From assembly GCF_988243305.1 (NCBI RefSeq), contig NZ_OZ547136.1: DNA of 64,000 bases. One strand, written 5' to 3'. Every line of letters begins with the position of its first letter. Position 1 is the stretch's first letter. A model generated the notes under the pieces. The model was not told where the DNA came from, did no database searches, and worked only from the letters and a program-made list of their open reading frames with translations. A program made the translations under genes and the position numbers. Below are positions 2,561-22,590 of this stretch, one piece after another.

Positions 2561-17189
<14,629 letters not shown>

Positions 17190-17293
17190 ATCAGCATACT
17201 TGTCCTTAGCCTTCTGCAGTGACAGCTGGTAGTACAGCGTGCTTCTGGCCAGCCCTGCAGCCTTTAACAGGTCAGACTGGCAGTGTCCGCATC

Positions 17294-17824
17294 TCAGGCT
17301 CCGGATGACTTTCGTTTTTTCTCCAGCTCCTGGCGCTTTTTTTCCAGGAGATGCTCCTGCATGGCTTTCAGATATGCATTTTCTGCGCGAAGATAACGCA
17401 GCTCATTCTTCATCTCTTCCGGCGTCATGTTTGCCTCGTTTTCATGGGTATCATCAGAACGGGTCATGCTTTTCTCCTTCCTGCGCCTGATAAAGGCCTC
17501 ATCACCAGATTTGCGGTAGCCTTTTATCCAGTTTTTAACCGTGTTGTGGCTGGGAATGTTAAACCGGGCAGCTACCCGGGGTAGAGACTCAGAATGCCCG
17601 AGAGCATAAAGAACCACGCAAAGTTTATCTTCAGGAGAATAGCTACGCCTGTGTCTGCAATCCAGTGCCCGAGGACCGTGAAGAAGAAAAAGATTAATCC
17701 AGTGTGAGAGGCTGGTGTGAGAAAGTTGAAAGAGTTTTGCCGTAGAAATGATGCCAGCATGACCGGCCAGGTAATGATTTACAGCGGCAAGTTTTACTTC
17801 AAATGAATGTTTCATAAACTGCAC
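17294..17824 (-). CDS. IS3-family transposase OrfA (HTH DNA-binding, leucine-zipper C-terminus)
   Basis: 176-aa ORF; slippery heptamer A AAA AAG at 17336-17342 near its 3' end. Confidence 0.8.
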   Translation of the reverse strand: MQFMKHSFEVKLAAVNHYLAGHAGIISTAKLFQLSHTSLSHWINLFLLHGPRALDCRHRRSYSPEDKLCVVLYALGHSESLPRVAARFNIPSHNTVKNWIKGYRKSGDEAFIRRRKEKSMTRSDDTHENEANMTPEEMKNELRYLRAENAYLKAMQEHLLEKKRQELEKKRKSSGA

Positions 17825-17986
17825 CTTCAGATGTCAGATTATGTCCAACATTTGGGGTGCAGTTCACAAGCGTCGTATCCGGCATTTCCAATGGGCGTAT
17901 TCTTTTTGAATCCCATCACAAACCCCGCACTCCCCTTTTCCCTTTTCTCCGGCGACGGCTAAATTAGAACTCATCCGACCACATAA

Positions 17987-20032
<2,046 letters not shown>

Positions 20033-20049
20033 ATCGTTATTTGAAGCGC

Positions 20050-20070
20050 CGGATGCGACGCATCCGGCAC
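20050..20070. terminator. hairpin/REP-like terminator after fadH
   Basis: gccggatgcgacgcatccggc perfect palindrome directly after the fadH stop. Confidence 0.45.
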
Positions 20071-20076
20071 GTCGCG

Positions 20077-20493
20077 TTAATCAATAAACAAGGCGGGAGA
20101 AATGCCGAATCGCGTTGCCAGTTTTTTAGCGTGTTCCAGCGTTAATTTCCTCTTCCCGCTCAAAACGCGTGACACCATGGATTTACTGCCAATTTCCGGA
20201 AGATCGGAAAGGGTTAAACCATATTGATCCATAAGGGTACGAATCACGGCTATACCGCCAGGCATGGCTTGAGCCATGGCATTAAATTCAGCAAATTCGG
20301 GCGCTGATTCTTCCCACGCGGTTATTTTGGCACACACCAGATCCAGCAAGGGATTTTCAGGATCGTTGAGCAGCAGATGATCTACCAGTTCCAGCGCCTG
20401 GGTGTATTGTTCCTCGTTCTGAATACCCGCCAGAAAAGGTGCCACAGCAGTTAGCTTTTCTCCTGCTTGCAAGATGTCGGCAATCGCAATCAT
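20077..20493 (-). CDS. higA: antitoxin HigA (HTH, Xre-like)
   Basis: C-terminal 138 codons of the 177-aa track ORF equal K-12 HigA (MIAIADILQAGEKLTAVAPF...). Confidence 0.8.
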   Translation of the reverse strand: MIAIADILQAGEKLTAVAPFLAGIQNEEQYTQALELVDHLLLNDPENPLLDLVCAKITAWEESAPEFAEFNAMAQAMPGGIAVIRTLMDQYGLTLSDLPEIGSKSMVSRVLSGKRKLTLEHAKKLATRFGISPALFID

Positions 20494-20610
20494 TTTTTCC
20501 CCTTTGAAATATCCCTTAGCAATCGTGTTCCCCAGAGCCACCAACTCCGTTTTATGTTGCGGGTATTTTTCCGCAGCATCTTTCAATGCTTTTTGAGTTA
20601 TCAGGTGCAT
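20494..20610 (-). pseudogene. higB: higB toxin remnant: first ~36 codons fused in frame to higA
   Basis: track ORF begins MHLITQKALKDAAEKYPQHKTELVALGNTIAKGYFK (HigB N-terminus as I recall it) then runs GEK-MIAIADIL into HigA; rest of the 104-aa toxin absent. Confidence 0.5.
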
Positions 20611-20749
20611 TCTTCATCACGTCCGTTGACAGATTGGCAACGAATGAATTTATCTGTGTGACGGAAGAATAAACGTAGAAAAATGCTAAACAAGAGAATG
20701 TAGAGGATGGTGACAGGGATTTTTTGTTTTATGGAAGCGCGATTCCAGA

Positions 20750-20865
20750 ACTGGGCAGACATTGCCGGATGCGACGCTTGCCGCGTCTTATCCGACCTGG
20801 GGGTAATGTGCTGAACGTAGGCCAGATAAGGCGTTTACGCCTTATCTGGCAGGTAGCTGCCAATC
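20750..20865. repeat. BIME/REP cluster between higB remnant and rlmG
   Basis: gccggatgcgacgcttgccgcgtcttatccgacc and aggccagataaggcgtttacgccttatctggc palindromic units. Confidence 0.5.
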
Positions 20866-22002
20866 TTACCGACGACGCCCCAGCTTCACCGCTTTCAGCA
20901 CCACAAATTTATTATTCGTGGCGATGGTGGTGCAGTTGCCGAAAATCTTCTTCAGTTTATGGAAGTAATCCAGGTGACGGTTGGCAACGATATACAGCTC
21001 GCCGTTGATTTTCAGACAGCGGCGGGCGTGGTGGAACATCTCCCAGGCGACGTTATCGGTCAGCGCATGTTGCTGATGAAACGGCGGGTTGCAGAGCACA
21101 GCATTAAAGCGGAAAGGCTCCACGCCGGAGAGCGCGTTGTTGATCATAAACTCGCAGCGATCCAACGCCTCTGGCATGTTGGTTTCAACGTTCAAACGGC
21201 TGGAAGCAACCGCCATCGGCGATTCATCGACAAACACCACTTTCGCCTGCGGGTTTTTATCAAGCAGCGTCAGACCAATAACGCCATTACCACAACCGAG
21301 ATCGACAATCTCACCTTCGAGATTCTCTGGCAGATGCTGCATAAAGAAGCGCGCGCCAATATCCAGCCCGGTGCGGGAGAAGACATTCGCATGGTTGTGG
21401 ATAGTCCAGTCAGTACCTTCCAGTTTCCAGCTAACGGTCTGCGGCGCATCGGCCAGCGGCGGCTCGTTGAAAGTACAGTTAATTAAGCGTGCCTTCTTCC
21501 ATGCCAGCGTGGTGGTGGTAGGGCCGAGCACTTTTTCGAACAGTTCCAGCGTGGAAGTGTGGATGTCACGGGCTTTGGCACCGGCAATAATACGTGTATC
21601 CGGCGTGACCACTTTGCGCAGCGCACGCAGTTGTTGTTCCAGCAACGCCAGTGTTTTCGGTACTTTGATCAGTACCACGCCCGGCTGTTGCGGGTAGTCG
21701 GCGGTGCTGTCGAGAAACTTCACGCTCGACTCATCAATCCCGTTGAGGCGTAAATTCTCGCGCGTCGCCAGTTCGCTGATGTATGAGTCGCCAATGCTGT
21801 ATGGCTTATGTTCCGCCAGCACACAACTTAACGCACCAAAGGCATCATTCAGGATCAACACCGGGCCGCGGATTTCTGTGTCGTCCAACTGTTGCAGCAA
21901 ATATTCATCCGCCGCTTCCCACGCCTGTAGTGGGTTAACGTCATCCGTCGCCGGAAAACGTTGTAGTGTCAGTGAACGGAAACCGTTGTCTAAGTGGCTC
22001 AT
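20866..22002 (-). CDS. rlmG: 23S rRNA (guanine1835-N2)-methyltransferase
   Basis: 378-aa ORF with SAM-binding motif (VDLGCGNG) matching K-12 RlmG/YgjO. Confidence 0.9.
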
Positions 22003-22086
22003 CGGCCCTCCTGAATGATAAAATTTCGACGTTGCCCCTGAAAAGGGTGCGTGAGTATACCCTTTTTCTCTTTTTCGTGGGCGGTT

Positions 22087-22590
22087 ATGAGCAATCTTAC
22101 TTATCTTCAGGGTTATCCCGACCAGCTACTTTCCCAGGTGCGAACGCTGATTAACGAACAGCGTCTGGGCGATGTGCTGGCAAAACGCTATCCGGGAACA
22201 CACGACTACGCCACCGATAAAGCCCTCTGGCAATATACTCAGGATCTTAAAAATCAGTTTCTGCGCAATGCCCCGCCGATCACTAAAGTGATGTATGACA
22301 ACAAGATCCATGTGCTGAAAAACGCGCTCGGGTTACATACCGCTGTTTCGCGTGTGCAGGGCGGCAAGCTGAAAGCAAAGGCGGAGATCCGCGTCGCTAC
22401 CGTGTTTCGCAACGCGCCGGAACCGTTTTTGCGCATGATCGTGGTGCACGAGTTGGCGCACCTGAAGGAGAAAGAGCATAACAAAGCGTTCTATCAATTG
22501 TGCTGCCATATGGAGCCGCAGTACCACCAGCTTGAGTTCGACACCCGGCTGTGGCTAACGCAGTTGTCGCTTGGGCAGGACAAAATCTGA
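22087..22590 (+). CDS. ygjP: metal-dependent hydrolase YgjP (HExxH)
   Basis: 167-aa product from ATG 22087 ([13 protein letters not shown]...); HELAH motif present. Confidence 0.85.

Follow-up and report, generated by a model that had tools for sequence, protein, structure and literature searches.

The window, a 64,000-nucleotide stretch of contig NZ_OZ547136.1 from RefSeq assembly GCF_988243305.1, contains an insertion sequence on its minus strand in which two overlapping reading frames meet near a heptamer of the kind used for programmed -1 frameshifting. The locus raises the question of whether these two frames are joined into one transposase by a slip of the ribosome, and whether this copy of the element is potentially active or a relic. 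We consider it very probable that the locus is a full-length, apparently undamaged IS1397 whose transposase, OrfAB, is produced by a ribosomal -1 slip at A AAA AAG, and which inserts in the loops of REP sequences.

The element occupies positions 16435 to 17866 (minus strand) and is a complete copy of IS1397, 1432 bp in length, a known E. coli insertion sequence of the IS3 family, IS150 group. The assignment was made against loci named in RefSeq, with 99.9% identity over positions 1-1432. When the 1432 bases were compared by megablast with 5426 complete E. coli genomes, full-length matches showed 99.6-99.9% nucleotide identity, and every one of them was annotated as "IS3-like element IS1397 family transposase". 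The RefSeq coding sequences of the matching loci consist of two joined pieces flagged "programmed frameshift", and the gene described in this way corresponds to that of the window. An earlier note, made from the sequence of the window, had called the slippery heptamer "IS3/IS911-type"; the element belongs to the IS150 group, specifically as IS1397, and is not IS911-like. Compared with known IS1397, the window copy has the same length, ends, orfA/orfB layout, A AAA AAG heptamer and REP-loop insertion, with no difference of substance. Recognition of the element and its frameshift signal was thus correct, and both were already catalogued, since the IS1397 case is listed in Table S4 of Sharma et al. 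2014 (PMC4066793) as cluster A_AAA_AAG_5, with "Y" for both a Shine-Dalgarno-like sequence and a structure. Footnote 6 to that table describes -1 frameshifting in the IS1397 cluster as "safely inferred", that is, not demonstrated (PMC4066793).

An IS1397 match of any kind was found in 3496 of the 5426 E. coli genomes (64% of the chromosomes) and a full-length copy in 1707 of the 5426. At least 40 IS1397 places were counted in strain BH100 alone. Plasmids accounted for only 7 of 7627 places, and close matches were present in 3 of 72,556 plasmid records; this near-absence from plasmids fits a reliance on chromosomal REP targets. Within the window the element is single-copy, as BLAST of IS1397 against the window returned no second copy or fragment.

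The first reading frame, orfA (17294..17815, minus strand), begins with ATG at 17815, ends with TGA at 17296..17294 and encodes 173 amino acids. It is preceded by a ribosome-binding site, AGGTG, 6 nt upstream of the ATG, and the predicted protein combines helix-turn-helix domains (Pfam HTH_28, HTH_23 and HTH_Tnp_1) with a C-terminal leucine-zipper-like region; the exact 173-residue sequence is present in public data. The orfB frame (16467..17402, minus strand) lies at -1 relative to orfA, ends with TAA at 16469..16467 and encodes the HTH_21, rve and rve_2 domains. With the -1 frame open from 17402 onward, orfA and orfB share 109 nt, and this arrangement of consecutive, partly overlapping reading frames with orfB in the -1 frame of orfA is the one by which IS3-family members are recognized. 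Translation through AAA AAG and then from one base back gave a stop-free fused protein of 449 residues with its junction at K160/A161. This OrfAB sequence aligned with positions 1-369 of 369 of the NCBIfam model NF033516 (transpos_IS3) in one uninterrupted match running across the junction, scoring 388 bits where the cut-off is 160, and matched the Pfam families HTH_28, HTH_21, rve and rve_2, with 76 bits for rve (cut-off 32.6). The catalytic residues are D295 (16934..16932), D355 (16754..16752) and E391 (16646..16644), together with K398, seven residues after the glutamate; 35 residues separate D355 and E391, giving the DD(35)E pattern. All four are invariant columns in an alignment with IS150, ISKpn8 and ISEnfa3 (41-43% identity). 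In the -1 frame, no start codon (ATG, GTG, TTG or ATT) was found from 17402 until GTG at 17189, and no ribosome-binding site was found for that GTG. The orfB frame therefore has no usable start of its own, and the DDE catalytic domain depends on the frameshift.

The heptamer A AAA AAG lies at 17336..17342 on the minus strand, which around this point reads ...atg cag gag cat ctc ctg gaa aaa aag cgc cag gag.... With codons counted from the orfA ATG at 17815, the string (17342..17336) has the X XXY YYZ phase. It precedes the orfA stop by 42 nt and lies where the 0 and -1 frames overlap, as the X XXZ ZZN criterion of Sharma et al. 2014 requires of such a site. Heptamers of the form A_AA.A_AA.G are among the most efficient in E. 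coli (Sharma et al. 2014, PMC4066793). For constructs lacking a motif, the reported background is about 0.04-0.07% (PMC4066793). The bare string is not rare: 21 occurrences were counted in the window, compared with 14.5 +/- 4 expected. What lies above chance is its phase, its location in the overlap and its conservation. A second AAAAAAG within the element, at 16540..16534 inside orfB, was discarded because it is out of phase (caa aaa aga). The earlier note had reported an intact canonical heptamer in phase with orfA, and downstream of it an orfB open in the -1 frame with its DDE core intact; the coordinates, the phase and the open frame from 17402 to 16467 all proved exact, and the fused frame contains no internal stop and aligns end to end with IS3-family transposases, as the note had asked to see.

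The E. coli dnaX frameshift signal combines the same A AAA AAG with AGGGAG 10 nt upstream and with a downstream structure. Both kinds of companion have candidates in the window. A Shine-Dalgarno-like AGGAG at 17354..17358 (minus strand) precedes the heptamer by 11 nt, a spacing that falls within the 6-17 nt at which such sequences (GGAG, AGGA, GAGG and the like) are treated as experimentally stimulatory (Sharma et al. 2014, PMC4066793). On the other side, a candidate hairpin of 38 nt and -12.4 kcal/mol (17295..17332, minus strand) starts 4 nt past the heptamer and runs at its 3' end into the orfA stop codon. Under the published hairpin rule, such a structure should span 17-140 nt, start at +4 to +10 with a C-G or G-C pair and then three or more further pairs, and have a stability of at least 7.6 kcal/mol (Sharma et al. 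2014, PMC4066793); the hairpin in the window conforms narrowly, with C-G and then A-U, G-C and G-C from +4. Against shuffled sequence its stability was weak (z = -2.3 over 50 nt and -1.0 over 60 nt). A common sequence variant of IS1397 retains it, with a U-G pair changed to U-A. Of the two candidates, AGGAG is the better conserved. CTCCTGG and CCAGGAG could also pair over 7 bp around the heptamer, but this structure was discounted, since it would already be melted by a ribosome sitting on the slippery site.

Named relatives differ mainly in these stimulators. IS150 and ISKpn8 resemble IS1397 in domain order and in having the heptamer near the 3' end of orfA, and their OrfAB proteins are 42-43% identical to that of IS1397. 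IS150 has a strong hairpin 6 nt past its heptamer (z = -4.5), whereas the IS1397 hairpin is weak, and Table S4 lists IS150 as N/Y for Shine-Dalgarno-like sequence and structure where IS1397 is Y/Y (PMC4066793). No REP targeting was seen for IS150. IS911 shares with IS1397 an A AAA AAG heptamer, an upstream Shine-Dalgarno-like stimulator and a downstream structure, and represents the other IS cluster with "Y" in both columns (PMC4066793); it differs in belonging to another IS3 sub-group and in having stimulatory structures unrelated in sequence to those of IS1397.

A wider view was obtained from a scan of representative genomes, which returned 80 loci (L011-L090) with 39-58% amino-acid identity in Bacillaceae, Paenibacillus, Pseudomonas, Halomonas, Massilia, Rhizobium and other hosts. 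A Pseudomonas syringae relative (L053, 56% identity) was among the closest homologues found; searches of plasmids and representative genomes did not turn up ISKpn1, the expected nearest relative. Among the 65 relatives with the 0/-1 arrangement, about 55 carry A AAA AAG in phase within the overlap, and A AAA AAA takes its place in another 7. In these relatives the heptamer lies within the OrfA motif ENAYLKK, with GGAG 11 nt upstream. Of 50 distinct sequences, 38 use GAG for the glutamate at that point, compared with 19.4 expected from the GAG/GAA usage of the same sequences, an excess with a Fisher p of 4.5e-8, uncorrected for phylogeny. Past the heptamer, most relatives have negligible structure; it is strong only in IS150 and ISKpn8.

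IS1397 itself departs from this pattern in position. At the ancestral site it reads YLKA (ctg aaa gcc), which is non-slippery, and its heptamer and AGGAG are found 9 codons further 3' with the 11-nt spacing kept; IS150 slips at the YLKK motif, and IS1397 would slip 9 codons downstream of it. The frameshift unit of IS1397 thus appears to have been relocated, a move for which no description was found in searchable papers. That the pair was displaced at unchanged spacing suggests that the Shine-Dalgarno-like sequence and the heptamer are selected together, as one unit.

From these features the following sequence of events is proposed. Translation of orfA would yield a 173-residue DNA-binding regulatory protein. 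Some ribosomes would slip back by one base, with two lysine tRNAs on A AAA AAG (17342..17336), and continued reading in the -1 frame would produce the 449-residue OrfAB, in which the helix-turn-helix and zipper regions of OrfA are joined to a DDE integrase-type catalytic domain. The slip is probably aided by AGGAG 11 nt upstream and perhaps by the modest hairpin 4 nt downstream. OrfAB would then work on the 25-bp terminal repeats and place the element in the loops of REP palindromic units, with duplication of 3-4 bp.

The same protein could in principle arise during transcription, if RNA polymerase added one A on the A7 run at 17343..17337; the junction, ...LLEKKAPGAG..., would be identical for the two mechanisms. 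The site is a homopolymeric run, and seven A is short for efficient transcriptional slippage. Such slippage has been reported in some IS3-family elements on A-rich runs, for example at A9U of IS1447 (PMC6211511), but the documented IS1447 run is longer than that of the window. What the relatives have kept, moreover, is the exact phase of A AAA AAG and its final G (55/65), not the length of the run, the conserved GGAG at a fixed 11 nt suits a ribosomal mechanism, and the literature places IS1397 among the ribosomal -1 frameshifts (Sharma et al. 2014, PMC4066793). An origin of OrfAB by transcriptional slippage is thus highly unlikely, and a ribosomal slip is the preferred reading.

The left inverted repeat (IRL, 17842..17866, minus strand) is TGAACTGCACCCCAAATGTTGGACA and the right one (IRR, 16435..16459, minus strand) ends in ...GGGGTTCAGTTCA. 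They form the best repeat pair in the region, 25 nt long with 21 of 25 positions matching (84% complementary) in an imperfect TGAACTG...CAGTTCA arrangement with 5'-TG...CA-3' termini, and together they delimit the 1432-bp element. The IRL is identical in the copies of strains MEI003, 23AR0806 and BH100, and the first 101 and last 156 nt of the element are identical in the three other IS1397 copies compared. IS1397 was found at differing loci in differing strains. The MEI003 copy, which lies at the dapE-ypfH locus between ypfN and ypfH, differs from that of the window by two silent base changes, and OrfAB translated from it, at another locus in another strain, is identical to OrfAB of the window. 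A sequence look-up also tied OrfAB to an accession encoded beside gppA in CP148568.1, a locus whose exact translation was not confirmed. A variant found beside fadH in other strains (WP_099156434.1) has 25 nucleotide and 6 amino-acid differences from the window copy. Judged by these sequences, IS1397 comprises at least two sub-lineages, with the window copy in one of them.

The target site could be read directly by comparison with GF60, a strain without the element whose sequence matches the window at about 99% identity on either side. In the window the two halves of a split REP palindromic unit flank IS1397: GATAAGACGCGACAA at 16420..16434 and CAAGCGTCGTATCCGGC at 17867..17883, both on the plus strand. 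In GF60 the empty site reads GATAAGACGC-GACAA-GCGTCGTATC, within the longer context ...CAGATAAGACGC-GACAA-GCGTCGTATCCGGC..., which is a REP palindromic unit, and IS1397 of the window sits in its loop. The trinucleotide CAA (TTG on the minus strand) stands beside IRL at 17867..17869 and again beside IRR at 16432..16434; the GF60 site holds a single CAA, which establishes the 3-bp target-site duplication. The MEI003 copy likewise lies in a REP loop, with a 4-bp duplication, GTTC, as does the 23AR0806 copy (4535..5967 of locus L002), with a 4-bp duplication, TGAC. Insertion into REP is a published hallmark of IS1397, reportedly shown by experiment (PMC1525189). ISPsy8, according to the same source, inserts into a REP hairpin at its axis of symmetry and produces a 3-bp direct repeat (PMC1525189). 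ISPsy8 and ISKpn1 are, like IS1397, REP-targeting members of the IS3 family; they have other hosts and other REP sequences.

Other strains record separate events close to the same place. In 23AR0806 the fadH-proximal REP was hit one base over from the insertion in the window, by a copy of a sub-lineage that differs at 25 positions, and this difference marks it as an independent hit on the fadH-proximal palindrome. In BH100 the fadH-proximal copy borders, on its far side, on a truncated ebgA, which points to a deletion of ebgC-ygjK associated with the IS.

The combination of IS1397 with the flanks seen in the window occurs in none of the 5426 complete E. coli genomes, including the 269 that share an adjacent 1.9-kb segment. 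Because it is absent from all of these genomes in its present context, the insertion looks recent. A dead relic that only seems intact, with no recent transposition and with a defect in a promoter or an end that reading-frame analysis would not reveal, would sit poorly with this private insertion, with a perfect target duplication, with ends identical to those of three other copies and with only two silent differences from the MEI003 copy. In its favor, a promoter scan of the left end of the element found no consensus sigma-70 site, the sites detected lying only outside the element, and about half of the genomes with an IS1397 match have partial copies only (1707 full-length of 3496). IS3-family elements generally have weak resident promoters. 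On balance a relic is very improbable, and we infer that the full-length copy in the window is still able to transpose. The earlier note had called both terminal repeats preserved and the element potentially active; the repeats are an intact 25-bp pair, and the activity, which continues to be a matter of inference, gains backing from the intact 3-bp duplication, the OrfAB identical at another locus and the insertion absent from 5426 genomes.

Some IS3-family members are described in the IS150 and IS911 literature as also making a separate OrfB product. That the heptamer is incidental here and OrfB is made separately, by internal initiation or translational coupling, is scarcely credible. The general description of the IS3-family transposase as two, sometimes overlapping, reading frames (PMC1525189) is consistent with it, but the -1 frame offers no start before GTG 17189 and no ribosome-binding site there, a product begun at that codon would be missing some of the sequence alignable with transposases of the family, and the heptamer is kept in phase across distant relatives.

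The left end of the element lies 147 bp (17867..18013) upstream of the fadH start codon at 18014, and the element and fadH are divergently transcribed. On the other side, a 1.9-kb segment (14486..16419) separates ygjK from the REP and IS1397. It contains an open reading frame on the plus strand (14733..16274) for a 513-residue protein annotated as "hypothetical protein", which contains three internal repeats of about 140-150 residues each with recurring motifs that include INLIN..TD...VNELV.AMTNAL, and which had no match in Pfam, NCBIfam or PADLOC. Of the 5426 complete E. coli genomes, only 269 have the segment, at this one chromosomal place; in other strains about 22 bp stand there instead. 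Flanking sequence of the window (10508..22501) was about 96% identical to 23AR0806 and about 99% identical to GF60 and VCSW7. Identity to VCSW7 was 99.2% on the ygjK side and dropped to 96.6% on the fadH side, which suggests that recombination in the lineage of the window had a boundary close to where REP and fadH meet.

The relatives also permitted a comparison of target sites. Empty sites were rebuilt for 32 relatives with flanking sequence, within L018-L090, by joining the flanks and removing one copy of the duplication. The rebuilt sites were strong hairpins that place the insertion point at their tip; the median was -13.3 kcal/mol, and 2473 control windows drawn from these flanks gave -4.8 kcal/mol (Mann-Whitney p = 5.6e-13). 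Energies of -12 kcal/mol or lower were reached by 21 of the 32 sites and by 6.3% of the controls, and A4 or T4 tracts, resembling those of intrinsic terminators, were present at 18 of the 21 strong sites. The energy comparison is the usable statistic: a strict criterion, in which the duplication had to be free of pairing and enclosed by 5 or more pairs, missed obvious cases, and a looser geometric criterion had a background of 24%. Three copies in one Neobacillus mesonae genome (L022, L028 and L078) occupy three different hairpin sequences. Further examples at hairpin tips are L046, L049 and L072, and the relatives span several phyla.

Targeting of the REP symmetry axis has been published for IS1397 and ISPsy8 (PMC1525189). 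An extension of this to terminator hairpins was not found in searchable papers, which does not in itself prove novelty. We tentatively suggest that IS1397 may be a REP-adapted member of a cross-phylum clade of the IS150 group that recognizes DNA shape at the tips of strong hairpins, mostly terminator-like, of which REP would be a special case, and that carries the selected unit GGAG-N11-A AAA AAG, rebuilt 9 codons downstream in IS1397. This broader proposal is possible, and somewhat more doubtful than probable.

For the window itself the practical value of the analysis lies mainly in annotation: orfA and orfB should be joined as one transposase with a -1 slip, the element named IS1397 and the split REP marked. 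The insertion upstream of fadH may alter the promoter context of that gene and could affect its expression. The relocated Shine-Dalgarno and heptamer unit offers a natural experiment on which stimulator is selected. If the relatives generally target hairpin tips, terminators among them, REP targeting by transposases of the IS3 family would have a simple explanation in structure, and such a preference would be a way for an insertion sequence to spare genes.
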